Position numbers and translations under genes: made by a program. From a phage: 64,000 bases of DNA. Each line of letters begins with the position of its first letter. The first letter of the stretch is position 1. Location: the sequence record PX880103.1, one strand, 5' to 3'. Below, in pieces: positions 13,301-63,580 of this stretch. The notes under the pieces were generated by a model. The model ran no database searches and had not been told where the DNA came from. It saw only the letters and a program-made list of their open reading frames with translations.

Positions 13301-15007
13301 TTATGGATAGGTATAGATCATACCAGTTTCTAAAGCAGTTTTGTGAATGATGTATCCATTACGCGATTCTTGGACATCAACTTCTGGATAGTCTTTCATC
13401 ATTTTCTGAAGAGTGTAACGATGCAGGTAGTATTTACTATCTGGATCTTCAGTTTTCCAATCTTTACCTTCTTCAGTCATTTTTTGGATTTCATCCATAA
13501 CCCACCAACCGCACCAGATGTAAGCTGAAGTACGATGTGGAAGAGGATGAACATAAGGTAATTCACCTTCTGGTTCCGGAGCAACTTTATCAGTTACCTG
13601 GACTTGACCTTCTGCTGTAATAGTTTTGCTATCATAGTCAACTGCAGTAACGACGGCAGTCACTTCAATAGTTTGACTTCCAACAGATGAAGTATCAACG
13701 GTATATACATTAGTTGATCCTTCTACTGGAGAAGAATCTTTCTTCCATGAATATTCAATTTGCGCTTCTTCTGGAGCATCAGTGACATTAGCAGTAAATG
13801 TAGCCGAAGCATCTTGTTGAACGTTAATAGAAGGAGGAGTCAATGTAACCTGTGGATTCATTGTCTTCTTATTAACCGTTAATGATACTTCATTAGAAGT
13901 AACTGTTTTTGCGTCATAATCCGTTGCTGTTACTTGGGCTACGCATTTAATTTTTTTAACTCCAACTGCAGTAGGAGTATAGTTAAATGTAGCGGAAGTT
14001 GCTTCACTAATTTGTGAATCATCTACATACCACTGATACGTAGCAGATGCTCCATCAGGTTGAGAAGCTAAAGCGGCGGTAAATTCAACAGCTGTTCCAA
14101 TTACTCCGGCACCAGGATTAGCAGGAGTTACAGCTAGGGTAGTCGTTTGTGTTTTCTTGTTAACAGTCAAAGATACTTCATTCGAAGTAACTTCCTTTTC
14201 ATTGTAATTTTCTGCAGTTACTTGAGCTACGCATTTAATTATTTTTACTCCACTTGTAGTTGGAGTGTAATTGAACGTAGCATTAGTTTCTCCAATAACT
14301 TGAGAACCGTCAACATACCATTTATATGTAGCAGATGCTCCAACGGGTTGAGAAGCTAAGGCAGCAGTAAATTGAACTGGGGTTCCGATTACTCCCGCTG
14401 GAGGACTATCAGGAGTTACTGCCAAAGTAGTTGTCTGCTCCTTTTTATTAACAGTCAGTGATACTTCATTCGAAGTAACGCTTAGTGCATCATAATCTGT
14501 CGCAGTTACTTGAGCCACACACTTAATTCTTTTTACGCCGCTTTCGGCAGGAGTGTAATTGAATGTAGCAGAAGTTGCTTCGCCCACAGGAGAATCATCT
14601 ACATACCATTGATAAGTAGCGTTTGCGCCCGATGGCTGCGAAGCTAAAGCGGCTGTAAATTGAACAGCTGTTCCAATTACTCCAGCGTCAGGGCTATTAG
14701 GAGTTACAGCTAAGGTGGTCGTTTGTGTCTTATTTTGAACTGTGATAGTTGTAGTAGCTTCTGCTGTTTCAGCTTCAGCTTCTGGAACTGTATTTGTTGC
14801 AACTACTTTAATAGTCTTTTGACCGGCAGGCCCCTTTAATACATAATTAAAAGTTGCTTCAGCTCCATCTTGTGGAACATTATCTACGCTCCAAGCATAT
14901 GTAATAGTTCCACCTTCAGTTTGACCACTGGGTGCAGCAGTAAACTGCTTGGTTTCATCAATAACCCCTGTCGGTGTTTTAGGAGTTATATCAACTGTAA
15001 AAGTCAT
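13301..15007 (-). CDS. hoc: Hoc outer capsid decoration protein, expanded to five Ig-like modules
   Basis: 568 aa; N- and C-termini match my recollection of T4 Hoc (376 aa); three ~96-aa near-identical tandem Ig-like repeats plus two diverged ones. Confidence 0.9.
   Translation of the reverse strand: MTFTVDITPKTPTGVIDETKQFTAAPSGQTEGGTITYAWSVDNVPQDGAEATFNYVLKGPAGQKTIKVVATNTVPEAEAETAEATTTITVQNKTQTTTLAVTPNSPDAGVIGTAVQFTAALASQPSGANATYQWYVDDSPVGEATSATFNYTPAESGVKRIKCVAQVTATDYDALSVTSNEVSLTVNKKEQTTTLAVTPDSPPAGVIGTPVQFTAALASQPVGASATYKWYVDGSQVIGETNATFNYTPTTSGVKIIKCVAQVTAENYNEKEVTSNEVSLTVNKKTQTTTLAVTPANPGAGVIGTAVEFTAALASQPDGASATYQWYVDDSQISEATSATFNYTPTAVGVKKIKCVAQVTATDYDAKTVTSNEVSLTVNKKTMNPQVTLTPPSINVQQDASATFTANVTDAPEEAQIEYSWKKDSSPVEGSTNVYTVDTSSVGSQTIEVTAVVTAVDYDSKTITAEGQVQVTDKVAPEPEGELPYVHPLPHRTSAYIWCGWWVMDEIQKMTEEGKDWKTEDPDSKYYLHRYTLQKMMKDYPEVDVQESRNGYIIHKTALETGMIYTYP
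13858..14722. repeat. three diverged tandem ~288-bp repeats encoding Ig-like modules within hoc
   Basis: Protein repeats 2-4 are ~80-90% identical; the DNA copies are clearly related but diverged. Confidence 0.75.
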
Positions 15008-20911: not shown

Positions 20912-22086
20912 TGAGTATGTTGCAACGCCCCGGATATCCAAATCTCAGCGTTAAATTATTTGATAGCTACGACGCTTGGAGTAATAATAGATTTGTTGAA
21001 TTAGCTGCTACTATTACAACATTAACTATGCGGGATTCTCTTTATGGCCGAAATGAAGGAATGCTACAGTTTTATGATTCTAAAAACATTCATACAAAAA
21101 TGGATGGAAATGAAATAATTCAGATTTCTGTAGCTAATGCAAATGATATTAATAATGTTAAAACACGAATTTATGGATGTAAGCATTTTTCCGTGTCAGT
21201 AGATTCAAAAGGTGATAACATCATTGCTATTGAATTGGGAACTATTCATTCTATAGAAAATCTTAAATTTGGTAGACCATTTTTCCCTGATGCAGGTGAA
21301 TCTATAAAAGAAATGCTTGGTGTCATTTATCAGGATCGCACATTATTAACTCCAGCAATAAATGCTATAAATGCTTATGTTCCTGATATTCCATGGACTA
21401 GCACATTTGAAAACTATTTGTCATATGTAAGAGAAGTTGCTCTAGCTGTAGGAAGCGACAAATTTGTATTTGTATGGCAAGACATCATGGGAGTTAACAT
21501 GATGGACTATGATATGATGATAAATCAAGAACCATATCCAATGATTGTCGGTGAGCCATCTTTAATAGGTCAATTCATTCAAGAATTAAAATATCCATTA
21601 GCATATGATTTTGTTTGGTTGACTAAATCGAATCCTCACAAACGTGACCCAATGAAAAACGCTACTATCTATGCTCATTCATTTTTAGATTCTTCAATAC
21701 CAATGATTACTACAGGAAAGGGTGAAAACTCTATTGTGGTGTCAAGGTCAGGTGCTTATTCTGAAATGACTTATAGGAATGGATATGAAGAAGCTATTCG
21801 TCTTCAAACTATGGCACAATATGACGGTTATGCTAAATGTTCTACTGTCGGTAATTTTAACTTGACTCCTGGTGTTAAAATTATTTTTAATGATAGTAAA
21901 AACCAATTTAAAACAGAATTTTACGTTGATGAAGTTATCCATGAATTATCCAATAATAATTCAGTAACTCATTTATATATGTTCACTAATGCAACGAAAC
22001 TGGAAACAATAGACCCAGTTAAGGTTAAAAATGAATTTAAATCTGATACTACCACTGAAGAAAGTAGTTCTTCCAATAAGCAATAA
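20911..22086 (+). CDS. 27: baseplate hub protein gp27
   Basis: 391 aa as in T4 gp27. Confidence 0.92.
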
Positions 22087-22564
22087 AGAAGTTTCTATTC
22101 CTAAAATGGGTCTTAAACATTATAACATTTTAAAAGATGTTAAAGGTCCTGATGAAAATTTAAAACTTCTTATTGATTCTATTTGTCCAAATTTATCACC
22201 GGCAGAAGTTGATTTCGTTTCTATTCATTTATTGGAATTTAATGGAAAGATTAAATCTCGTAAAGAAATAGATGGCTATACTTATGACATTAATGATGTT
22301 TATGTATGCCAAAGATTAGAATTTCAATACCAAGGAAATACATTTTATTTTAGACCTCCTGGAAAATTTGAACAATTTTTAACGGTGAGCGATATGTTAT
22401 CTAAATGCTTACTTAAGGTCAATGATGAAGTTAAAGAAATTAATTTTCTTGAGATGCCAGCATTCGTTTTAAAATGGGCAAATGATATTTTTACAACTTT
22501 AGCAATTCCTGGCCCTAATGGTCCAATAACTGGAATTGGCAATATTATTGGATTATTTGAATGA
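22031..22564 (+). CDS. 28: baseplate hub distal protein gp28
   Basis: 177 aa as in T4 gp28; overlaps the 3' end of gene 27 in another frame. Confidence 0.85.
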
Positions 22565-24334
22565 AAAAGCCACAAGAAATGCAAACGATGCGTAGAAAAG
22601 TTATTTCAGATAATAAACCAACACAGGAAGCGGCTAAATCCGCTTCTAACACTTTATCTGGACTTAATGATATATCTACGAAATTGGATGATGCTCAAGC
22701 TGCTTCTGAATTAATAGCTCAAACTGTCGAAGAAAAATCGAATGAAATAGTTGGAGCAATTGGTAACGTAGAAAGCGCAGTTAGTGATACTACTGCCGGT
22801 TCTGAGTTAATTGCTGAAACTGTCGAAATTGGCAACAATATTAATAAAGAAATCGGTGAATCACTCGGAAGCAAATTAGATAAATTAACAAGTTTACTAG
22901 AGCAAAAAATTCAGACAGCTGGAATTCAACAGACTGGGACTAGTTTAGCCACAGTTGAAAGCGCTATTCCTGTTAAAGTCGTTGAGGATGATACTGCTGA
23001 ATCTGTGGGTCCTTTATTACCGGCTCCCGAAGCAGTTAATAATGATCCTGACGCTGATTTTTTCCCTACCCCTCAACCAGTTGAGCCAAAGCAAGAATCA
23101 CCAGAAGAAAAACAGAAAAAAGAAGCATTTAACTTAAAATTATCTCAAGCTTTAGATAAATTAACAAAGACGGTTGATTTTGGATTTAAGAAATCCATTT
23201 CAATTAGTGATAAAATATCAAGCATGTTATTTAAGTACACCGTCAGTGCTGCTATTGAAGCTGCTAAAATGACTGCAATGATATTGGCTGTTGTTGTTGG
23301 AATAGACCTTTTGATGGTTCACTTTAAATATTGGTCAGATAAATTTTCGCAGGCATGGGATTTATTTAGTACAGACTTTACTAAATTCTCTAGCGAAACC
23401 GGAACTTGGGGTCCTTTATTACAGAGCATCTTTGATTCTATTGATAAAATTAAACAACTTTGGGAAGCGGGAGATTGGGGTGGATTGACAGTAGCTATTG
23501 TTGAAGGGCTTGGAAAGGTTCTTTATAATTTAGGAGAACTTATTCAGCTTGGAATGGCTAAATTATCAGCAGCAATTCTTCGAGTTATTCCTGGTATGAA
23601 GGATACTGCTGATGAAGTAGAAGGAAGAGCACTAGAAAATTTCCAAAATTCTACTGGAGCATCTCTTAATAAAGAAGACCAGGAAAAAGTTGCGAATTAT
23701 CAAGATAAACGAATGAATGGAGACCTTGGTCCAATAGCAGAAGGACTAGACAAAATTGCGAACTGGAAAACTCGTGCATCTAACTGGATTCGTGGCGTTG
23801 ATAACAAAGAAGCATTAACTACCGATGAAGAACGCGCAGCGGAAGAAGAAAAATTAAAGCAACTTTCACCGGAAGAAAGAAAAAATGCTTTAATGAAGGC
23901 CAATGAAGCTCGTGCCGCGATGATTCGTTTTGAAAAATATGCTGATTCAGCTGATATGAGTTAAACACCCAACGGTTAAATCAGTTGAAGCTGCCTATGA
24001 AGACCTTAAACAGCGGATGGATGACCCGGATTTAAATAATTCACCGGCAGTTAAAAAAGAACTTGCTTCTAGATTTGCTAAAATTGATGCTACTTATCAA
24101 GAGCTTAAGAAAAATCAGCCTAATGCCAAACCTGAAACTTCTGCTAAATCACCAGAAGCGAAACAGGTCCAGGTTATTGAAAAGAACAAAGCACAACAAG
24201 CTCCTGTTCAACAAGCATCTCCTTCAATCAATAATACTAATAATGTTATTAAGAAAAATACTGTCGTTCATAATATGACACCTGTTACGAGCACAACTGC
24301 TCCTGGTGTATTTGGCGCGACTGGAGTTAATTAA
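22561..24334 (+). CDS. 29: gp29 tail-length tape measure / baseplate hub protein, interrupted by an apparent 1-nt frameshift near 23957-23964
   Basis: 467-aa ORF (22561-23964) continues in the +1 frame (open from 23960, ends 24334); removing one nucleotide fuses them into 590 aa, the T4 gp29 length. Confidence 0.85.
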
Positions 24335-24342
24335 GGAATAAT

Positions 24343-25437
24343 ATGGCAATTGTTAAAGAAATAACTGCTGATTTAATTAAAAAGTCCGGTGAGACAATTT
24401 CAGCCGGGCAGAGCACTAAATCAGAAGTAGGAATTAAAACATACACAGCCCAGTTTCCAACTGGGCGTGCTAGTGGTAATGACACTACAGGGGACTTCCA
24501 GGTAACAGATCTATATAAGAATGGATTATTATTTACTGCATACAATATGTCATCTAGGGATTCTGGAAGTCTTAGATCGATGAGATCTAACTACTCTTCT
24601 TCATCTTCGAGTATTTTAAGTACAGCTAGAAACACTATTAGTAGTACAGTATCAAAACTATCAAATGGATTAATATCAAACAATAATTCAGGAACAATAA
24701 GTAAAGCTCCTGTCGCAAACATTCTTTTACCAAGATCTAAATCTGATGTTGATACATCATCACATAGATTTAATGATGTTCAAGAAAGCCTTATCAGTAG
24801 AGGCGGAGGTACTGCTACTGGTGTGCTAAGTAATATTGCTTCAACCGCAGTATTTGGGGCACTGGAAAGTATAACACAAGGTATAATGGCTGATAATAAT
24901 GAACAGATTTATACGACAGCCAGAAGTATGTATGGTGGTGCTGAAAATAGAACTAAAGTGTTTACATGGGATTTGACTCCACGTTCAACAGAAGATTTAA
25001 TGGCTATTATTAATATCTATCAATATTTTAACTATTTTTCTTATGGTGAAACGGGTAAATCTCAATATGCTGCTGAAATAAAGGGGTATTTAGATGATTG
25101 GTATCGTTCTACATTAATTGAACCTTTATCTCCGGAAGACGCAGCTAAAAATAAAACATTATTTGAGAAAATGACATCGAGTTTAACTAACGTTCTAGTA
25201 GTTTCAAACCCGACGGTTTGGATGGTGAAAAACTTTGGCGCAACATCTAAGTTTGATGGAAAAACGGAAATATTTGGTCCATGCCAAATACAGAGCATCA
25301 GATTTGATAAAACACCTAACGGTAACTTTAACGGATTAGCTATTGCTCCAAACCTCCCTAGTACATTTACTCTCGAGATTACTATGAGAGAAATTATCAC
25401 GTTAAACCGTGCTTCTTTATATGCGGGGACTTTTTAA
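24343..25437 (+). CDS. 48: baseplate tail tube cap gp48
   Basis: 364 aa as in T4 gp48. Confidence 0.92.
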   Translation: MAIVKEITADLIKKSGETISAGQSTKSEVGIKTYTAQFPTGRASGNDTTGDFQVTDLYKNGLLFTAYNMSSRDSGSLRSMRSNYSSSSSSILSTARNTISSTVSKLSNGLISNNNSGTISKAPVANILLPRSKSDVDTSSHRFNDVQESLISRGGGTATGVLSNIASTAVFGALESITQGIMADNNEQIYTTARSMYGGAENRTKVFTWDLTPRSTEDLMAIINIYQYFNYFSYGETGKSQYAAEIKGYLDDWYRSTLIEPLSPEDAAKNKTLFEKMTSSLTNVLVVSNPTVWMVKNFGATSKFDGKTEIFGPCQIQSIRFDKTPNGNFNGLAIAPNLPSTFTLEITMREIITLNRASLYAGTF

Positions 25438-26754: not shown

Positions 26755-26784
26755 ATTATAACACAACATAAGGAACTTGTAAAC
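26755..26784 (-). promoter_or_regulatory. early-type promoter (-35 GTTTAC, 18-nt spacer, -10 TATAAT) for the alt.-3-position ORF
   Basis: Minus strand reads GTTTAC ... TATAAT, then GAGGAA RBS and ATG. Confidence 0.55.
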
Positions 26785-28841
26785 TACATTTTGAACTTTT
26801 TAGACATTCCGTTGATGTTAACCAAAGAAGCTAAGATTTGAGAAACTTCGTTTTCCTCTTCTTTTGATTCTTCTACAAGGAATTGATTAAATCCAGCCAT
26901 TGGACGAACTTCACCAGTTTCCATTAAATGGTCGCCATCATATACTGATTCTTCTAATTGTTCAGAAGGAGGAACGATTGTACCTTCGATTAGATACTTG
27001 TTATAAGCAGTTTCTTTCATAAAGTACGTACTTACTTTATTAATCTTCAGTAAAATTCCACGCGGTAGAATAACTTCAGCTTCTGATGGAAATCCTGATA
27101 AATGACCTGGAACGATAACTTTGATTCGCTCAGCTCCTTTAATTACCATACCCACTCTAGTTTCAGCATCTTCATTAGCGTATGTAGAATGACTACCCAT
27201 ATGCATCAAATCTTCTGCATCAACGGAACCTTCTCCTTCACCAGAAAATACTGCACCGGAATCATCTAGAGCCATATAGTTTTTACCATGCTCGCCGAAG
27301 ATATTTGGTTTAAGTGATGTCGATACGAAGTTCTTGAAATAGAACATTTTGTTTTCAATGTTATGACGCAAAGTTTTAAAGGTAACTTCTTGTCCACGGT
27401 AAAGTGTAGTTCCTGGAGGAAGAACTGATCCTTTGGCAAAGGCAGAATCCAACGTCTCGATGTGCTTAATAGCTCGTTCCATGTATTCTTCACGAGTAGA
27501 ATCTGGTTTACCCAAAAGGAACGAGTTCATTTCAACATATGAATCTGCACAATAATCTTCAATTACATCAGATTCAGCTTGAGTTAATCCTTTTGGAGTT
27601 ACTTCAGTACTTGCGTATTCATATGCCTGGGCAGCAGATTCATTAATCAATTTATAAATGCCATTCATGACGAATTGAATAATAGCTGTCTTTTCATCTG
27701 GCGTGGCTTTAGAACCTTTAACTAAATCATTAATAATTTTCTTAATAACATCAAAGCTATTAGAAATATTAATGTCAGCAAGATCGCTTAAAATTTTATC
27801 AGTTTTATAATCAAAGAATTCTTTATTCTTTAAATATTCTTGAGAACCTTGATATGTTATATCACTCTGCAACTTGATAGATGGATCACGTAAACGCGCA
27901 TGGGCCAATGCGATATGATTTCGGAAGTTTTCTAGTTCATAATCGCTAGATTTAAAACGAGAAGCACTCCTCATACCACCAATAGCTCCTTTGCTGAAGT
28001 TTGAACCAATCTGGATAACGCCAGAGTTCATTGGACCTTCTGCTTTATATACCGGAACTTTAGATTCAAACTCTTGATATTTCTTGGCAGCGAAGCTATC
28101 ACCCTGAAGTGAAGCATCGACAGTAGAATATTGAGCTTGTGCTGCTAATCGACGACTAATTTTAGTTTTCTGAATAACAGCTTGATCAGTGCGCTTATCA
28201 TTTTCTAAAGCAATAGAAGCAGCAACAGCGACAGCTTTAGGAACAGCATCACCTGTTTTAACATCTACATAAACATCACCGACCTTTGATTCAACTTTTG
28301 TGAATAACTCAGTTGAAATAGGAGGTACACCTGGAATGTCTTCTAAATTGGCATTTTTACGGTAAACCATAATATATGCATATTTCTTATCATAATCCCA
28401 GATTTCCTTTAAAAGAACATATCGACCTGCTCCTTTAGTACGTACTAAACGGTCAGCAATAACTTGCATTTGACGAGCTGCGCCATTTGTTTTACTTTTT
28501 AGCACACGGAACAAACACGCGTCAATTTTATACTGCTTCATTGTTTGAAGAGCAGTATCAAAAACAGCATTAATGACGCCAATTGGATTTCCACCCAAGT
28601 TTTTAAGCTTAACTAGTGATAATTTCTCGTTGACACCTATCATTACGATATGCATCATTTTATCGCCTGGCTTAACGTTTTTATTTGTATCACCACCAGA
28701 GGTGTATGTACAAAATCTAAATCCAGGAAGCACGCTTTCTTCACCGGCTTGAATAGCAAAAATTTGAGGTATTTTATGCTTAGGATTTAAGTTAACAACC
28801 GGCGCCGAAGCGCCGTCAAATAATTCTGTAATAAGTTCCAT
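26784..28841 (-). CDS. Alt-like ADP-ribosyltransferase, paralog A
   Basis: 685 aa; N-terminal MELITELFD; ART triad context YRGQ, FVSTSL, EAEVILPRG. Confidence 0.85.
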   Translation of the reverse strand: MELITELFDGASAPVVNLNPKHKIPQIFAIQAGEESVLPGFRFCTYTSGGDTNKNVKPGDKMMHIVMIGVNEKLSLVKLKNLGGNPIGVINAVFDTALQTMKQYKIDACLFRVLKSKTNGAARQMQVIADRLVRTKGAGRYVLLKEIWDYDKKYAYIMVYRKNANLEDIPGVPPISTELFTKVESKVGDVYVDVKTGDAVPKAVAVAASIALENDKRTDQAVIQKTKISRRLAAQAQYSTVDASLQGDSFAAKKYQEFESKVPVYKAEGPMNSGVIQIGSNFSKGAIGGMRSASRFKSSDYELENFRNHIALAHARLRDPSIKLQSDITYQGSQEYLKNKEFFDYKTDKILSDLADINISNSFDVIKKIINDLVKGSKATPDEKTAIIQFVMNGIYKLINESAAQAYEYASTEVTPKGLTQAESDVIEDYCADSYVEMNSFLLGKPDSTREEYMERAIKHIETLDSAFAKGSVLPPGTTLYRGQEVTFKTLRHNIENKMFYFKNFVSTSLKPNIFGEHGKNYMALDDSGAVFSGEGEGSVDAEDLMHMGSHSTYANEDAETRVGMVIKGAERIKVIVPGHLSGFPSEAEVILPRGILLKINKVSTYFMKETAYNKYLIEGTIVPPSEQLEESVYDGDHLMETGEVRPMAGFNQFLVEESKEEENEVSQILASLVNINGMSKKFKM

Positions 28842-28844
28842 GAT

Positions 28845-30941
28845 TTATCCTTGAACGAACTTGTAAGGCATGTTTGTAATATCTATGCAAGACGCAATAA
28901 TTCCAAGAGATGATTCTACTTTCTGTTTAACATTTGATGAAACAAATGATGCAAAGTCAACTCTGTCTTCTATTTCAATATCACCTGTCGTTGTAACTAC
29001 TTCGCCGGTTTCCATTAGACGGTCACCGTCATAAATTACCGATTCGGTGAGTTCTTCCGTGGTCATAACTTCAGCTTGAATGAGTTTTGTATTATTAGAC
29101 GTGGTTCCGTCATTATTAGAAGCATCAGTTATTTTATTAACTTTGACCATCAATCCGCGCGGTAGAATAACTTCAGCTTCTGTTGCTATTCCGAGACTTC
29201 CTGGATATACAACATTAACTTTATGAGCTCCATCAATTGCCCATCCTATTTGAACTTTAACGTATTCAGGATTTTCTTTATACGCTCTTATTTCGTTTGG
29301 ATTAATAGTTATTCCTTCTTCATTTTTATCAACTGTTAATTCATTGCGAGCTTCTGGTTCTAAAAGACCAATACCAGCATGTGTAATTCCAAAACGTCCA
29401 AAAATGATAGGAGTTAAAGAAGTAGATACAAAATTTCTGAAATAGAACACTTTATTTTTAACTAGTGCTTCGTATATAGGAGCAGTCATACTTTGAGCAC
29501 GATAAACTGTAATGCCTTCCGGTATGCGGTCACCATTTTCAAAAGCTGAATCTAAATTATTTATAGCAGATTCAATTTCTTTTTCACTCATTACATCATA
29601 TCGTTCTGGATTGTAACGACCTAAAAGAAGATTATTAATGTCTGTATATCCTGAGCCACAATATTCTCTAATGCCGCGCTTTTGTGATGGAGTATATTTA
29701 GAACCATCACGAGCAATAGTAATATCAATCATTGGACCAGCACCAATTCCAGAAAAACTATAAATCATTCGTTTGAGGAATTTAGTTTTTGCTGCATTCC
29801 AGGCATTTTTAGTTATTTCTTCCCAGACTTCATCTGACTGACCTTTACGAGTTTTATTATGTTTATCAAGCCAATTATCTTTATATTCTTCAAAGAATTG
29901 ATTAACAGCTGCTGCGTATTTCTCTAAACATTTTATTGAAGTAGTTGGTTCATTTTTAATCGCATTAAGAATTACATCTTTAATTTTTTCAGAAACTTCA
30001 TTAACCTCACTTTTTGAAAAGAATTTATAATCATAGTGAAGTTCATCTGCAGTTCCTTCGGCAATAATTTTTGCTGCCTTAGTTTTAGAAGCTAATGAAT
30101 TAATTCCAAGCTTCATTTCTTCTGCTTCGGGAATTAAAGGAGCAGTAGCAGGTTTATTGAAATTAGCTGCGGTAGATTCATACTTCTGGAATAATTCACT
30201 TTCAAATCTAGAAGATTCCAATGACTGACTTTGTGCAATTGCTCTACGGGAAATTTTAACTTTAACGATTACAGCTTGGTCAGAACGTTTATCATTTTCT
30301 TGTGCAATAGATGCTGCAATTGCCTCATTTTTAGTTACTTGAGCTCCGGTATCTTTATTGATATAAACATCACCGACCTTCGATTCAACTTTAGTAAAGA
30401 GCTCGGTACTAATTTCCGGAACTCCTGGAATGTCTTCTAGTGATACATTTTTGCGATGTATAAGAATATATGCATACTTTTTATCGTAATCCCAGAGTTC
30501 CTTAAGAAGGACGTATCTACCACCTGAACGACTACGGATAAGTCTATCAGCAATAACTTGAATTTGTCGAGCTTGGCCAGCAGTTTTAGACTTAAGAATA
30601 CGGAGCATACAGGCATCAATTTTATACTGACGCATCGTTTGCATTGCAACAGTAAAAACTGAATTGATATAATTAATTGGGCTTGGACCAAGACCTTTTA
30701 ATTTAGCAATTGAACCTTTAGCAGTTAATGTAAAAGGAACAATATGCATCATTTTATCGCCCATTTTTAAATCGCGATTAGTATCACCTCCAGATGTATA
30801 GGTACATAAACGAAAGCCTGGTTGTTCAATTGCATCATCAACGTGAACTGAAAAAATTTGCGGTATTTTCTTCTTTGGATTTAAGTTTGTAATCGGAAGA
30901 GTAGTATCTTCGTCAAATAATTCTGTAATGAGTTCCATCAT
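28845..30941 (-). CDS. alt: Alt-like ADP-ribosyltransferase, paralog B (probable Alt ortholog)
   Basis: 698 aa; N-terminal MMELITELFD; YRAQ, FVSTSL, EAEVILPRG; late promoter upstream; adjacent to gene 30. Confidence 0.85.
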   Translation of the reverse strand: MMELITELFDEDTTLPITNLNPKKKIPQIFSVHVDDAIEQPGFRLCTYTSGGDTNRDLKMGDKMMHIVPFTLTAKGSIAKLKGLGPSPINYINSVFTVAMQTMRQYKIDACMLRILKSKTAGQARQIQVIADRLIRSRSGGRYVLLKELWDYDKKYAYILIHRKNVSLEDIPGVPEISTELFTKVESKVGDVYINKDTGAQVTKNEAIAASIAQENDKRSDQAVIVKVKISRRAIAQSQSLESSRFESELFQKYESTAANFNKPATAPLIPEAEEMKLGINSLASKTKAAKIIAEGTADELHYDYKFFSKSEVNEVSEKIKDVILNAIKNEPTTSIKCLEKYAAAVNQFFEEYKDNWLDKHNKTRKGQSDEVWEEITKNAWNAAKTKFLKRMIYSFSGIGAGPMIDITIARDGSKYTPSQKRGIREYCGSGYTDINNLLLGRYNPERYDVMSEKEIESAINNLDSAFENGDRIPEGITVYRAQSMTAPIYEALVKNKVFYFRNFVSTSLTPIIFGRFGITHAGIGLLEPEARNELTVDKNEEGITINPNEIRAYKENPEYVKVQIGWAIDGAHKVNVVYPGSLGIATEAEVILPRGLMVKVNKITDASNNDGTTSNNTKLIQAEVMTTEELTESVIYDGDRLMETGEVVTTTGDIEIEDRVDFASFVSSNVKQKVESSLGIIASCIDITNMPYKFVQG

Positions 30942-43533: not shown

Positions 43534-44712
43534 TTAAAAGTATTTTTTAAAACTCATCATAACTTTATCATCAACGTCATTATCAATCTGTGCTACAAGA
43601 TAAGATGACAGTTCTACTTCTTGCGGCGCGGATTGAACATTATCAGAATTAAGATATTCACGAATCCAAGGATATGGATGTTTAACCGGAGCATCGGTAA
43701 TTGGGCATGGAAGACCACACTGTTTCATACGAGATACAGTTAAGTAATCAATAAAGCTCCACATGCTATTTGTATTTAATCCAGGAACATCGCCATCTTT
43801 AAATAAATGAACTGCCCAATCTTTTTCTTGGCGGTTAACTTCCATGAAAATATCAACTGCTTCTTGTTCACACTCTTGAGCAATTTTAACCCATTCATCG
43901 CCATCAGTGCCAAGTTGAAGTTGACGAATAATATATTGAGTGCCTTTAAGGTGAAGCTGCTCATCACGTGCAATGAACTTCATAATCTTGGCATTACCTT
44001 CCATGATTTCCATATTCTTATGGAAGTTAAAAGTGCATGCGAAAGATACATAAAAACGAATAGCTTCTAAGGCATTAATAACGTGCAAACAGAGGTAAAG
44101 AGATTTCATTAAAGCACGTTTAGCTTCGACTTCATGTTTAATAGCTCGGTTTAAACGAAAGTCGGCATCAGGAGATTCTTTAGCTAGTTCTACAAATTCT
44201 TTAGCATTTTCCCATTCACGGGTTTTAATCAGAACATCATCATAATAGCGACCGATAGATTCAGCACGTTTCATAATAGCTTCATCTAATACAATCTCAT
44301 CAAATACCTTCGATGGATCAGTATAAAGATTTCGCATGATATGTGTATATGAACGACTGTGAATAGTTTCACTAAAAGTCCATGTAGCAACCCATGTATC
44401 AAGGCTTGGGTCTGAAATTAATGACATAAGTACAGCAGACGGCGCACGACCCTGAATGCTATCCAAAAGTGATTGATACTTCAAATTGTTAGTAAAAATA
44501 TTTTGCTGATACTGAGGAAGCTTATTAAACTGCGCAGCATCCATCATTAAGTTTACTTCTTCAGGCCGCCAGAAAAATGACAATTGCTTTTCGGTCAAAT
44601 CTTCAAAAACTTTATGGCGTTGAATATCATAACGCGCAATACCAAGACCTGAACCAAAAAACATGGGTTCTTTTAAAACATCAACTGGATTTGTATTAAA
44701 AACTGTGCTCAT
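43534..44712 (-). CDS. nrdB: ribonucleotide reductase small subunit, uninterrupted (no intron)
   Basis: 392-aa continuous ORF with di-iron/tyrosyl-radical R2 features. Confidence 0.92.
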   Translation of the reverse strand: MSTVFNTNPVDVLKEPMFFGSGLGIARYDIQRHKVFEDLTEKQLSFFWRPEEVNLMMDAAQFNKLPQYQQNIFTNNLKYQSLLDSIQGRAPSAVLMSLISDPSLDTWVATWTFSETIHSRSYTHIMRNLYTDPSKVFDEIVLDEAIMKRAESIGRYYDDVLIKTREWENAKEFVELAKESPDADFRLNRAIKHEVEAKRALMKSLYLCLHVINALEAIRFYVSFACTFNFHKNMEIMEGNAKIMKFIARDEQLHLKGTQYIIRQLQLGTDGDEWVKIAQECEQEAVDIFMEVNRQEKDWAVHLFKDGDVPGLNTNSMWSFIDYLTVSRMKQCGLPCPITDAPVKHPYPWIREYLNSDNVQSAPQEVELSSYLVAQIDNDVDDKVMMSFKKYF

Positions 44713-47345: not shown

Positions 47346-47562
47346 ATTGTTTTTCCGTTAAAACAGTAATATCGTAGTAACAGTCAGAAGAAGTTTTAAC
47401 TGTGGAAATTTTATTATCAAAATACTCACGAGTCATTTTATGAGTATAATATTTTTTACCATAAATGATAATAGGCTGTTCTGGTCCTGGAACTTCTAAC
47501 TCGCTTGGGTTAGGAAGTGTAAAAAGAACGGCACCAGAAGTATCTTTAAATCGTAAAATCAT
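47299..47562 (-). CDS. hypothetical protein
   Basis: 87-aa ORF between td and nrdA. Confidence 0.5.
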
Positions 47563-48419
47563 ATTGCCATTTTCCCTTTAATTGCTGGATGCGATTCATA
47601 ATTTTCAAGGATAAAATCTTTCGGTTTCATGTATTCAGTTAACCAGTAAAGCTGTGTTTCGGTGTCACAATTTCCAAACTCTATAGGCCAATCAATTTTA
47701 AGTTCACACAGTTCTTTAGGCTCACGACGTAAAATTTCTTTACATTGCTCAGTATGATTCATATAGATGTGAGTATTACCACCAGAAAATATCAAATCTC
47801 CTGGGATAAGATTACACATCTTAGCCACAATATGCGTCAAGGCAGCATACGAGGCAATGTTGAATGGCAAGCCTAAGAAAACATCTACACTTCTTTGGTA
47901 CCATTGTAAATCAAGATAACCATTACGCACATTAAACTGATAGAACATATGACAGGGCGGTAATGCCATTTGATTGATTTCAGCTGGATTCCATGCTGAA
48001 ACGATTTGACGTCGATCAGTTGGTAATTTTTTAATACGATCAATAGTTTCAACTAATTGATCCACACCACCGAAATCACGCCATTGTTTACCGTATATAG
48101 GACCAAGTTCACCACTATGATATCCTAGGTCTTTAGCCTGGTTTTCATAGTTATCGTCCCAAATAGTTTTACCTTGAATAAGACTACCATGAGTGCGAAG
48201 ACGTAAATCATTAACATTGGTAGAACCGGAAATAAACCATAGAAGCTCAGCAATGCATGCATTCCAAGCGAGCTTCTTAGTTGTTACTGCAGGAAAACCT
48301 TTAGTTAAATCCCAGCGTAATTTAGTACCGAACAAAGCAATTGTTCCTGTGCCTGTTCGGTCATCGGTTTCATAACCATTTTCAAAAATGTCTTTAATTA
48401 AATCTTGGTATTGTTTCAT
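47559..48419 (-). CDS. td: thymidylate synthase, uninterrupted (no intron)
   Basis: 286-aa continuous ORF as spliced T4 Td; active-site context PCH. Confidence 0.95.
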
Positions 48420-48464: not shown

Positions 48465-48812
48465 TCAATACGGTTTAGCATCAAATTTTCTCTCAATTTC
48501 AGGTGTGAAATATAATTCTTTACCACGTTTGGAAAAGCGACCAATAATATGATAATTATTCTCATCAAACGTGATATTACCAATATCCATAGCTTTCAAC
48601 CAAATATCGATATTTCTATCAAGCTTTATGTCAAAATTCCAATACAGAGAACTATTACCGAAAATACTACAAGCGGATTCAGTGAAACAACTGCTATAAA
48701 TCTTGTCTTTAGGAACTACTAATTGATAGACACCTTTAATAAACTGAGGACCCTGCCATTTTGGCTGTTTCACGTCTTTTTCTAATAGAATAGGGTAATA
48801 ATTAAAATTCAT
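48465..48812 (-). CDS. hypothetical protein between frd and td
   Basis: 115-aa ORF with no recognisable motif, in a junction where T4 frd and td overlap. Confidence 0.55.
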   Translation of the reverse strand: MNFNYYPILLEKDVKQPKWQGPQFIKGVYQLVVPKDKIYSSCFTESACSIFGNSSLYWNFDIKLDRNIDIWLKAMDIGNITFDENNYHIIGRFSKRGKELYFTPEIERKFDAKPY

Positions 48813-49969: not shown

Positions 49970-50197
49970 TTATTTTTGGATTAATCCCATATAAAATTTA
50001 GCATCTTCAGGATACATGCCATCACAATACTCATTGGTCATAAAACTAATAAGGTCTTCAAGAGGACCTTGAACTTCAATTTGAATACTAAAGAATTGGG
50101 TATCTTTAATGTAAGCCATACTCAAAGAAGGATAACGATTGCGGATAACTTCGTAAGTGTATTCAAAATCAACAATATCAATATTAACCTTAGCCAT
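49970..50197 (-). CDS. hypothetical small protein, paralog 1 ([13 protein letters not shown]...)
   Basis: Start moved to ATG 50197 with GAGGAAAA RBS (75 aa); the track's longer version would swallow its own promoter. Confidence 0.55.
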
Positions 50198-50662: not shown

Positions 50663-50887
50663 CTATTCAATAAATCCTGTGTAAAATTCTACATCTTCAG
50701 CATCCATACCGTCGCAGTATTCATTAACCATAAACTGTTTAAGACGATTTAAAGGACCTTCAATAACAACTGAAACATTACAATTAGGATCATTTAGTGC
50801 GCTTATGATACTAAGTTCAGGATAACGATTACGAATAATTTCTTCAATATATTCAAAATCAACAACATCAATATCAATTTTAGCCAT
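50663..50887 (-). CDS. hypothetical small protein, paralog 2 ([13 protein letters not shown]...)
   Basis: Start at ATG 50887 with GAGGAAAA RBS (74 aa); about 50% identical to the 49970-50197 product. Confidence 0.55.
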
Positions 50888-60037: not shown

Positions 60038-63000
60038 ATGGCTACTTTAAAACAAATACAATTTAAAAGAAGCAAAACAGCAGGTGCACGTCCTGCTGCT
60101 TCAGTATTAGCCGAAGGTGAATTGGCTATAAACTTAAAAGATAGAACACTTTTTACTAAAAATGATACAGGTCAAATTATCGACCTTGGCTTCGCTAAAG
60201 GTGGACAAGTCGATGGTGATGTGACTATTAATGGTAAATTAACATTAAATGGTGCGTATGTTCAGACGCTGGCTGGTATTAATACCACGGGTGGTATTAA
60301 TGCTGGAGCCGCTATAAGTGCAACAACTTATTATGCTCGGTCTGGTTCTTATTATGCTCGTGCTCCAGATGCCGATACGAATACACATGTTTGGTTTGAA
60401 AATAGCAATGGTATAGAACGTGGCGTGATTTGGGCTATTCCGAACACTTCAGACCTTGGCCAGGTCAAAATTCGGGCGAAAACCACAGGTGGTGTTTTCG
60501 CCGGCGAGTACAGTTTCCGCTCTGATGGCCGATTTGATGTTCCTGTAGCAGTTAAAATCGGCGGAGCAGCGATGCTAACCAAAGACGGCAACATTACATC
60601 AGGTTCATTGTTTGGTGGTAACCTTAACAACTATTTGACTTCTATTAAAAATGACATTGTTGCTGGTGATAATAAGAAAGTAAGTAAAACCGGTGACACT
60701 ATGTCCGGTAACTTGACTATTAACGCTAACTTAAAAGTCGAAAACTCTAATGGAACGTATGTTGATTTAGGTTCAGAGAACTCTAGTAACTATAGCAGAT
60801 TAACTCTTGCTCGTAAAGTTGGAGATGGCGCTGGTGTAGCAATGCTTAAAGTTACTCCTGAAGGAAACGTGCAATTTGGTTATCAACCTACAGTTGCTAC
60901 TCCATCTCCTACCAAGTATATTCTAATTAAACCTAACGGTCTTGAAGTAGAAGGTGATTTAGTTTTTAAGCAAACTTATCGTGGTATTGAAGAAGCATTT
61001 GATATTACTGATCAGACTATTGACCTTAATAGCCTTATTATTAGAGGATCAGATTTAGGTACTCGTAAGCTGTATAAATGCAGATCATCTGGCGGTGGTT
61101 CTAATATATTGAACAAACCTACATCTGACGGCAACTTTACTCTTGAAGTTCTGTCTTTACGCAAGGTTTCTGATAGCGATTGGTCATGTAAGCAGACCTT
61201 TACTACAAAGAACAATAATGTTGTAGGCGTATATGTTCGCTACGGACAAGGCGGCTCATGGACCGCATGGCAAGAAGTTGTATCTGGTGTTCAGCCAATT
61301 AAATTAGGTGGTACTGGAGCAACTTCTGTAGCTGCTGCCCGTAATAACCTTGGTGTTGGTGAAGGCCAAACTGTAACATTCGGTAATTTAGTTACCAATG
61401 ATTTAACTGCAAACAAACAAGTTAAAATCGGCGGAGTCGGAATAGCTGATGCATTAAGAATTTGGAATGCCGAATACGGTGCTATTTTCCGTCGTTCAGA
61501 AACAGCATTACATATTATCCCGACTCCTAAAGATGCTGGTGAAAATGGTGGAATAAGTAATCTCCGCCCATTAAGTATTGCTCTTAATAATGGTATGGTA
61601 CAAATGCGCCATTCTGTTACGTTAGGCGATGACGGCAGAGGTGGCAATATGATTACCGTAGACAATGATAATAAACTTGTTGCTGTTACTAGTCATAGCC
61701 GCATTTCTCCTAATTACCGTATGCAGTTAGGTCAGGCTGCGTACATTGATGCAGAATGTACTGATGCTGTTCGCCCGGCTGGAGCTGGTTCTTTTGCTTC
61801 ACAGAATAATGAAAACGTCCGTGCTCCGTTCTATATGAATATTGATAGAGCTGATACTGGTACATATGTTCCGATTTTGAAACAACGTTATGTTCAAGGT
61901 AACGGCTGCTATTCATTAGGGACTTTAATTAATAATGGTAATTTCCGAGTTCATTACCATGGAGGCGGAGATAACGGTTCTACAGGTCCACAGACTGCTG
62001 ATTTTGGATGGGAATTTATTAAAAACGGTGATTTTATTTCACCTCGCGATTTAATAGCAGGTAAAGTCAGATTTGATAGAACTGGTAATATTACTGGAGG
62101 TTCAGGAAACTTTGCCAATTTAAATACCACGTTAAACCGTAAAGTTAATGTTGGCGGTTGGGCTGGTAGTTCTGATGGTGGATGGTACAAATTTGCTACG
62201 GTAACAATTCCTCAAGGTACTGGCACAGTAACTTTTAAAATTTCCGGTGGAGCTGGTTTTAATTTTAAAAGCTATAACCAAGCTTCTATTGCTGAGATAG
62301 TTCTTCGCACAGGTAATAATCCTAAAGGCATAAACGCTGTACTATGGAACAGGTCAGACCTGAGTTTTAATCAGATAGCTACTATGAATACATCTGGTGA
62401 TACTTATGATGTATACGTGTTCTGTGACGGTTATACAAATGCATTAGTGGTTGAATATTCTTGTAGTGAAAACTCTTCGGTAACCGTAGTCGGTCTTAAC
62501 GGAGGCATTCAGCCAGTTGTTGATGCATTGCCTGAGGGACATGTTGTAGGTAAAACAGTTCGTCTGTTAAATAATATTGGCGGAACTTTCGCAGCTGGCG
62601 AATCTGACGTTGTTACTCGTGGTGAATACGTTGCTGATAATCAAAAAGGCATGCGTATTAAATCTAACGGTAATAATATCGGTTCTAATGCTGCTATACT
62701 TCGAAATGACGGCGGAAGTTTTTATATTTTAGCTACAGATAAAAATACAGCAGAAAAAGCCGATGCGGCTAATGGTGATTGGAACTCATTGCGTCCTTTT
62801 ACAATAAGCATGACTACCGGTGAAGTATCAATGAATAACGGCATAACTGTTCGTAACTATGCCACATTCTATAATGATATTGTTCTCAAAGATAATGGTT
62901 ATATTCACTTTAATAAGTCTGGCGCTAATCCAAGAAGCATGAGTATATTCCATGCCGGAGATGCCACACGTGGTAACCGTATTGAAATTGCTGATGATTC

Positions 63001-63580
63001 AAGTTATTTGGTTTATTTCCAACGTTTACCGGGCGGCGCTAACCAGTGTACATTTAACTCTGCTGCTCTTTCGGGTATAACACAGACTAACTCTTTTGGT
63101 GTCAATACATCAAACGCACTTGGTGGAAATAGTATAACGTTTGGTGATAATGACACCGGTATTAAGCAAAATGGCGATGGATTATTAGACATATATGCGA
63201 ACAGCGCGCAAGTGTTCCGTTTCCAAAATGGTGATTTGTACTCATACAAAAATATAAATGCTCCAAACGTTTATATTCGTTCTGATATTCGTTTAAAATC
63301 CAACTTCAAACCTATCGAAAATGCACTTGATAAAGTTGAAAAACTTAACGGTGTCATTTACGATAAAGCTGAATACATCGGTGGAGAGGCAATTGAAACT
63401 GAAGCGGGTATTGTGGCTCAAACGTTACAAGACGTTTTACCAGAAGCTGTCCGTGAAACAGAAGACAGCAAGGGTAATAAAATACTCACTGTTTCTTCTC
63501 AAGCCCAGATTGCTCTTCTGGTTGAAGCTGTGAAAACACTTTCTTCTCGCGTAAAAGAACTCGAATCTAAACTTATGTAA
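60038..63580 (+). CDS. 37: long tail fibre distal subunit gp37 with C-terminal intramolecular chaperone-like domain
   Basis: 1180 aa; last ~99 aa (SDIRLKSNFKPIENALDKVEKLNGVIYDK...) resemble the self-cleaving chaperone of tailspikes/endosialidases. Confidence 0.88.
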   Translation: MATLKQIQFKRSKTAGARPAASVLAEGELAINLKDRTLFTKNDTGQIIDLGFAKGGQVDGDVTINGKLTLNGAYVQTLAGINTTGGINAGAAISATTYYARSGSYYARAPDADTNTHVWFENSNGIERGVIWAIPNTSDLGQVKIRAKTTGGVFAGEYSFRSDGRFDVPVAVKIGGAAMLTKDGNITSGSLFGGNLNNYLTSIKNDIVAGDNKKVSKTGDTMSGNLTINANLKVENSNGTYVDLGSENSSNYSRLTLARKVGDGAGVAMLKVTPEGNVQFGYQPTVATPSPTKYILIKPNGLEVEGDLVFKQTYRGIEEAFDITDQTIDLNSLIIRGSDLGTRKLYKCRSSGGGSNILNKPTSDGNFTLEVLSLRKVSDSDWSCKQTFTTKNNNVVGVYVRYGQGGSWTAWQEVVSGVQPIKLGGTGATSVAAARNNLGVGEGQTVTFGNLVTNDLTANKQVKIGGVGIADALRIWNAEYGAIFRRSETALHIIPTPKDAGENGGISNLRPLSIALNNGMVQMRHSVTLGDDGRGGNMITVDNDNKLVAVTSHSRISPNYRMQLGQAAYIDAECTDAVRPAGAGSFASQNNENVRAPFYMNIDRADTGTYVPILKQRYVQGNGCYSLGTLINNGNFRVHYHGGGDNGSTGPQTADFGWEFIKNGDFISPRDLIAGKVRFDRTGNITGGSGNFANLNTTLNRKVNVGGWAGSSDGGWYKFATVTIPQGTGTVTFKISGGAGFNFKSYNQASIAEIVLRTGNNPKGINAVLWNRSDLSFNQIATMNTSGDTYDVYVFCDGYTNALVVEYSCSENSSVTVVGLNGGIQPVVDALPEGHVVGKTVRLLNNIGGTFAAGESDVVTRGEYVADNQKGMRIKSNGNNIGSNAAILRNDGGSFYILATDKNTAEKADAANGDWNSLRPFTISMTTGEVSMNNGITVRNYATFYNDIVLKDNGYIHFNKSGANPRSMSIFHAGDATRGNRIEIADDSSYLVYFQRLPGGANQCTFNSAALSGITQTNSFGVNTSNALGGNSITFGDNDTGIKQNGDGLLDIYANSAQVFRFQNGDLYSYKNINAPNVYIRSDIRLKSNFKPIENALDKVEKLNGVIYDKAEYIGGEAIETEAGIVAQTLQDVLPEAVRETEDSKGNKILTVSSQAQIALLVEAVKTLSSRVKELESKLM

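Follow-up and report, generated by a model that had tools for sequence, protein, structure and literature searches.

The 64,000-nt stretch of phage DNA analysed here (the window throughout) carries gene 29, which in T4-like phages encodes the tail tape-measure and baseplate-hub protein, in two reading frames. The question this locus raises is whether the phage itself has a broken gene or whether the break arose while the record was made. We consider a local sequencing, assembly, polishing or editing artefact the most likely answer, with a probability of roughly two in three. The phage itself would then encode a normal, uninterrupted gp29 of 590 aa, and the lesion would have arisen during the making of the record. 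The window is a segment of a Tequatrovirus (T4/T2-like) genome, and the 24-kb stretch around the site is ~96–97% identical to many such phages; the 1774-nt gene 29 query has 97.5% DNA identity to T2 and 95.7% to T4. Gene 29 and its neighbours lie in the window as follows:

22031..22564, plus strand: gene 28, intact, the neighbour on the upstream side (baseplate hub distal subunit; 99.4% identity, full length).
22561..23964, plus strand: 5′ part of gene 29, a 467-aa ORF corresponding to gp29 residues 1–467, with a premature TAA at 23962–23964.
23963..24334, plus strand, +1 frame: 3′ part of gene 29, with the codons for gp29 residues 468–590 and the normal stop.
24017..24334, plus strand: the sole ATG/GTG/TTG-initiated ORF in the shifted frame, 105 aa, from the ORF list.
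24343..25437, plus strand: gene 48, intact, the neighbour on the downstream side (baseplate tail-tube cap; 98.4% identity, full length).

The original prediction had assigned this locus to gene 29 and placed a surplus T near the end of the longer ORF; alignment to T2 and T4, tblastn and the Pfam profile PF25671 bear out both the identity and the position. By tblastn against T4T gp29, the 5′ part aligned over residues 1–467 in frame 1 at 98.5% identity, and the 3′ part over residues 468–590 in frame 2 at 95.1% identity. The PF25671 (T4_Tape_measure) profile is divided in the same way, with positions 1–467 of 590 matched by the 5′ part (1084 bits) and positions 468–590 by the 3′ part (254.7 bits), against a match cutoff of 27 bits. 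Jointly, the two parts cover positions 1–590 with none missing, as a member of this family should. Translation confirmed both frames as they had been described: the 467-aa ORF ends in ADSADMS followed by TAA, and the +1 frame, whose last upstream stop is the TGA at 23957–23959, has no further stop between 23960 and the TAA that ends at 24334. Removal of any one base from 23957–23962 gives a translated product of 590 aa, which, as foreseen, is the length of T4T gp29 and also that of gp29 in 11 other genomes. The gene order 51-27-28-29-48-54 matches that of T4T and T2, and the junctions are likewise those of T4 and T2, with a 4-nt overlap between gene 28 and the gene 29 start and 8 nt between the gene 29 stop and gene 48. 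Sequence and synteny place the gene in the T4 gp29 tape-measure family, yet it would not specify one continuous polypeptide: in place of a single uninterrupted ORF of ~590 codons, the window has an ORF that stops after codon 467, and the C-terminal loop (residues 571–590) is encoded only in the +1 frame, separate from residues 1–467.

At the nucleotide level, the break consists of two features:

23961..23962, plus strand: TT dinucleotide with one T extra, the frameshifting base; GAGTTAAA in the window, GAGTAAA in relatives.
23966..23969, plus strand: two private substitutions, G>C at 23966 and T>C at 23969 (G and T in relatives), 5 and 8 nt downstream of the extra T.

The window reads GATATGAGTTAAACACCCAACGG at 23953–23975. 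Alignment to T2, and to T4 gene 29 as had been proposed for a check, shows that the gene is split by one extra T at 23961/23962, with GAGTTAAACACCCAACGG in the window against GAG-TAAAGACTCAACGG in T2 and T4. The allele in the record, with its extra T, is GAGTTAAACACCC; the form expected in the phage DNA, were the lesion an artefact, is GAGTAAAGACTC. In a gene 29 alignment of 12 genomes (the window, T2, T4T, the contig L004 and 8 further Tequatrovirus genomes), the extra T makes the sole gap column among 1774. The locus had been described as a single-nucleotide frameshift, and one extra T does split the gene, but it is not isolated. The two private substitutions that accompany it, an observation new to this analysis, bring the lesion to three changes within 9 nt (+T, G>C, T>C). 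Both substituted sites are invariant in the aligned panel apart from the window and are first-codon positions in the shifted frame, where the changes are non-synonymous and give D470H and S471P in the repaired protein. The 10 other SNPs in gene 29 that are private to the window within this panel all fall at third-codon positions. Because three private changes crowd into 9 nt while the surrounding 130 nt, queried in repaired form, are otherwise identical to T2, the cluster looks like a single local event, unlike the ordinary divergence of this genome.

Beyond the lesion, the 3′ part retains the marks of a coding sequence. Its remaining differences from T2, at 24043 and 24106, are at third-codon positions of the shifted frame, and the 123 downstream codons are free of decay: they contain no stop, keep the normal stop position and are 95% identical to T4. 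Since the downstream frame is undecayed, the frameshift has no evolutionary age.

We found the break in no other genome. Gene 29 matched 501 phage (Tequatrovirus) records, of which ~99 rows were listed, the sampled full-length ones at 91.6–97.5% identity. The gene spans 1773 nt in 40 of the 40 best rows and in 58 of 59 evenly sampled full-length rows, as against 1774 nt in the window. OL964745.1 (Escherichia phage T4, 108460–110229), in which gene 29 has 1770 nt, is the only length variant among the ~99 listed rows, the difference being 3 nt, so that the gene stays in frame. Homologs split at the same point had been named as the finding that would speak against the original prediction; none turned up among the ~99 rows listed from the 501 records, all of these rows being in frame, nor among the aligned genomes, 11 of 11 having an unbroken gene 29 of 590 codons. 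A candidate for a second broken gene 29, KJ477684.1 (T4 strain 'wild', 301–2073), was rejected: its sequence is intact and identical to T4T, and its missing gene 29 CDS (locus tag 194 is skipped) is an annotation omission. PQ561408.1, which appeared as a record of at least 99% identity, was likewise set aside as a close relative, the match being a 60-nt end match to a 7.4-kb record.

Searches for the particular haplotype gave the same picture. A 130-nt query with the extra T removed was matched perfectly by none of 385 phage records; the nearest, T2 at 98.5%, departs from it at the two substituted sites and nowhere else. Neither with the extra T nor without it did the haplotype have an exact match in IMG/VR viral contigs, 185,579 species-representative genomes or JGI metagenome contigs. 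Four exact proteins, namely the 467-aa and 105-aa products, the repaired gp29 of 590 aa and the neighbouring gp48, are absent from a collection of 15 billion proteins, and so exact-protein matching turned up no independent assembly of this phage. A search with the exact gp54 brought up three contigs. The comparison with these rests on L004, a different strain (97% identity) whose 590-aa gene 29 is intact, the other two (L005 and L006) reaching little or none of the gene. A homolog search with the 124-aa C-terminal fragment, aimed at naturally split homologs, returned 2 distant matches from 6 candidates; it did not retrieve close relatives of gp29 and so carries no information on such splits.

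What the truncation would do to the protein can be judged from gp29 architecture. Recent structures place the C-terminus of gp29 at the bottom of the tail, where the final 20 residues bind to the gp27 hub trimer; the resulting complex is probably the one from which tail assembly starts, and the N-terminus is in contact with the end of the DNA (PMC12929629). The protein has a helical-bundle domain at residues 273–518 and a C-terminal loop at 571–590 (bioRxiv 10.64898/2026.03.06.709160), and its copy number per tail is given as 3 in one source and 6 in the latter. The claim that gp29 is essential is upheld by gene 29 amber mutants, whose growth is restricted to a suppressor host. Read against this architecture, the stop after residue 467 would cut the helical bundle within 273–518 and remove the gp27 anchor. 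Because the bundle is cut, the gp27-binding loop is lost and the gene is essential, we expect the 467-aa product to be non-functional.

It is this expectation that turns us toward an artefact. As gene 29 is essential and the truncation is predicted to be lethal, such an allele is unlikely to have become the majority sequence of a propagated isolate, and a plaque-purified, propagated phage should not carry it as such. From the essentiality of the gene, together with the atypical pattern of changes, we infer that an artefact is about twice as probable as all else combined, and that the split gene 29 is most likely no real biological feature and no new biology, but a mistake in the record or a defect of recent origin. 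Several observations pull the other way. When the proteins of T4T (~85) were compared with the window by tblastn, gene 29 was the only gene split between frames, so that the window is otherwise clean over 64 kb. The change from T to TT involves no long homopolymer and is not a classic error context for 454, Ion Torrent or Nanopore sequencing. Such artefacts are also uncommon at gene 29, with 0 of the ~99 other listed rows out of frame.

The rest of the window bears on how readily an error can be assumed. The other non-triplet indels relative to T4T and L004 fall into two groups: those paired within ~10 nt of each other in divergent stretches, and those that are unpaired and lie, by inspection of their coordinates, outside conserved genes. 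One of the unpaired indels is at the site where T4 carries the frameshifted remnants alt.-1 and alt.-2. A second damaged gene was suspected in denA, which looked slightly short and was found to be intact. Because gene 29 is the sole frame-split gene in 64 kb, a high general error rate cannot be invoked; the record is not generally indel-ridden, and an error here is a rare event, yet one residual error per tens of kilobases is unremarkable.

The window has several further features. The window begins at the exact ATG of gene 16 (small terminase, 1–492); since position 1 is this ATG, the source record has probably been rotated to start at terS, and the original contig junction, if any, would now lie inside the record. 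At the alt locus, where T4 has one full alt gene and the two frameshifted remnants, the window encodes two full-length tandem Alt-like ADP-ribosyltransferase paralogs of 685 and 698 aa (26784–28841 and 28845–30941, minus strand), a two-gene layout shared with the contig L004. The homolog of the head-decoration protein Hoc (13301–15007, minus strand; PHROG 1149, Hoc-like) is 568 aa long, its T4 counterpart 376 aa. Since T4 Hoc can be aligned with it in three overlapping registers, it probably carries extra Ig-like repeats. Each of nrdB and td (43534–44712 and 47559–48419) consists of one ORF, of 392 and 286 aa respectively, and both appear intron-less. Of the T4 homing-endonuclease genes, segE is present, and segD, segG, mobE and I-TevI have no counterpart in the window. 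In T4, td and frd overlap directly; here an extra 115-aa ORF (48465–48812, minus strand; PHROG 1928, function unknown) separates them. Two separate ORFs, each ~68% identical to T4 frd.3 (49970–50197 and 50663–50887, minus strand), may represent a duplication flanking the frd.2 homolog. Near the end of the window, the distal long-tail-fibre protein gp37 (60038–63580, plus strand) has 1180 aa and matches T4 gp37 at 61–73% over two segments only; a T4-type gp38 was not found in the window, which ends soon after gene 37.

Among the alternatives to an artefact, the one that survives best is a recent loss-of-function allele, in which the complex mutation (the extra T and the two substitutions) is truly present in the DNA and yields a non-functional 467-aa gp29. 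We hold this possible though unlikely, at appreciably lower odds than an artefact. High-multiplicity propagation, for instance, could have let a defective or leaky variant rise in the stock, complemented by co-infecting wild-type genomes, or the consensus could have captured a variant present in a sub-population; our estimate covers both routes together. The absence of other frame-split genes in the window suggests accurate sequencing, the context is not a long homopolymer, and the lack of decay in the downstream frame agrees equally well with a very recent event and with an artefact. Clustered multi-nucleotide mutations also occur in nature. What weighs against such an allele is that gp29 is essential and that its C-terminus is the hub anchor, so that a lethal allele should not become the majority genotype. 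Nor did we find a source for the changes: when up to 2 mismatches were allowed, the three-change patch had no second match in the window, in L004 or in ~70 kb of T4T. With neither the window nor ~80 kb of related sequence offering a template, a template-switch mutation from a nearby or ectopic copy was rejected. No part of the haplotype occurs in any other phage or contig searched. Were the allele real, it would amount to a null mutation in an essential gene that is already well studied, and its significance would go no further.

Programmed recoding, by which a +1 shift at AGU-UAA-A, or a hop, would yield full-length gp29, we regard as very improbable. In prfB-type +1 frameshifting, as at the take-off site of T4 gene 60, the point of the shift is generally followed at once by a stop codon in the A site, and the AGU-UAA arrangement here resembles both; with 3 to 6 copies of gp29 per tail, even low efficiency might suffice. 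The details of the site do not support this. By pairing rules, re-pairing of the P-site codon from AGU to GUU would be poor, and we found no Shine-Dalgarno-like motif anywhere in 23930–24025 and no slippery heptamer at the gene 29 break. The only single-base runs at the break are TT and AAA; the nearest homopolymers of at least 5 nt are AAAAA at 23933 and AAAAAA at 23880, and for this reason transcriptional slippage is out. No hop restores the frame, since the downstream candidates for a landing codon, AGT at 23983 and AGC at 23989, are both in frame 0 and lead to stops. A 10-bp inverted repeat (23946–23955 / 23980–23989; TTCAGCTGAT / ATCAGTTGAA) brackets the lesion and might be taken for a stimulatory structure. 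It is, however, identical in the unbroken genes of T2 and T4, and the local fold is no better than that of shuffled sequences (z = -0.45). Real recoding sites are conserved among relatives, whereas the gene 29 split is unique among ~500 genomes, a conserved split being absent elsewhere from the 501 matching records and from three contig collections.

Least probable of all is a two-piece tape measure, assembled non-covalently from an N-terminal protein of 467 aa and a C-terminal one of 105 aa with its own start (ATG at 24017): both ORFs are intact and jointly cover 572 of 590 profile positions, but no Shine-Dalgarno-like sequence precedes this ATG and the stretch 5′ of it is identical to T2, so that nothing has evolved for independent initiation, residues 468–485 would be lost, the break lies inside the helical-bundle domain at 273–518 (bioRxiv 10.64898/2026.03.06.709160), no relative examined is split, and the ruler must run physically continuous from the hub to the tube tip (PMC12929629).

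Even taken jointly, recoding and a working split are left with a very small share of the probability. Comparably slim is the chance that the extra T is real and the phage viable with it, through a low-efficiency, non-canonical +1 shift at AGU-UAA or through a two-piece ruler, in which case D470H and S471P would be linked adaptive changes. Only for a phage shown to be viable with precisely this sequence, an unlikely case, would the lesion gain importance for recoding or for the biology of tail assembly. The order in which the original prediction had ranked its explanations, an error or a mutant first and recoding last, thus holds: recoding signals were not found, and the split is unique. If the lesion is an artefact, as we favour, the record should be corrected or gene 29 flagged in it; left uncorrected, it may lead automated annotation to spread a truncated "467-aa tape measure" and an orphan 105-aa ORF.

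A comparison with known systems places the locus more closely. With the +1 frameshift of prfB (RF2), it shares a stop directly after the codon that would need to shift (here AGU UAA A). The P-site differs, being the slippery CUU U in prfB and AGU U here, and the upstream Shine-Dalgarno stimulator and the conservation in relatives have no counterpart at this site. The bypass of T4 gene 60 comes from the same phage group, also has a take-off-like codon followed by a stop, and finds a likeness here in the hairpin that can be drawn around the site. Unlike in gene 60, there is no matching landing codon that restores the frame and no coding gap, the two parts abutting exactly, and the hairpin is no better than shuffled sequence and is also found in the unbroken T2 and T4 genes. 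Judged on these sequence features, the locus has only a trivial one in common with prfB and gene 60, a stop codon at the break, and lacks every defining feature of either mechanism that was checked. A third comparison is with frameshifts in deposited phage genomes that have been blamed on sequencing or assembly error. The present case departs from these in having no long homopolymer, two substitutions alongside the indel and no other such defect in 64 kb; it shares with them an unpaired 1-nt indel confined to a single record, an essential gene of invariant length and a downstream frame that has not decayed.
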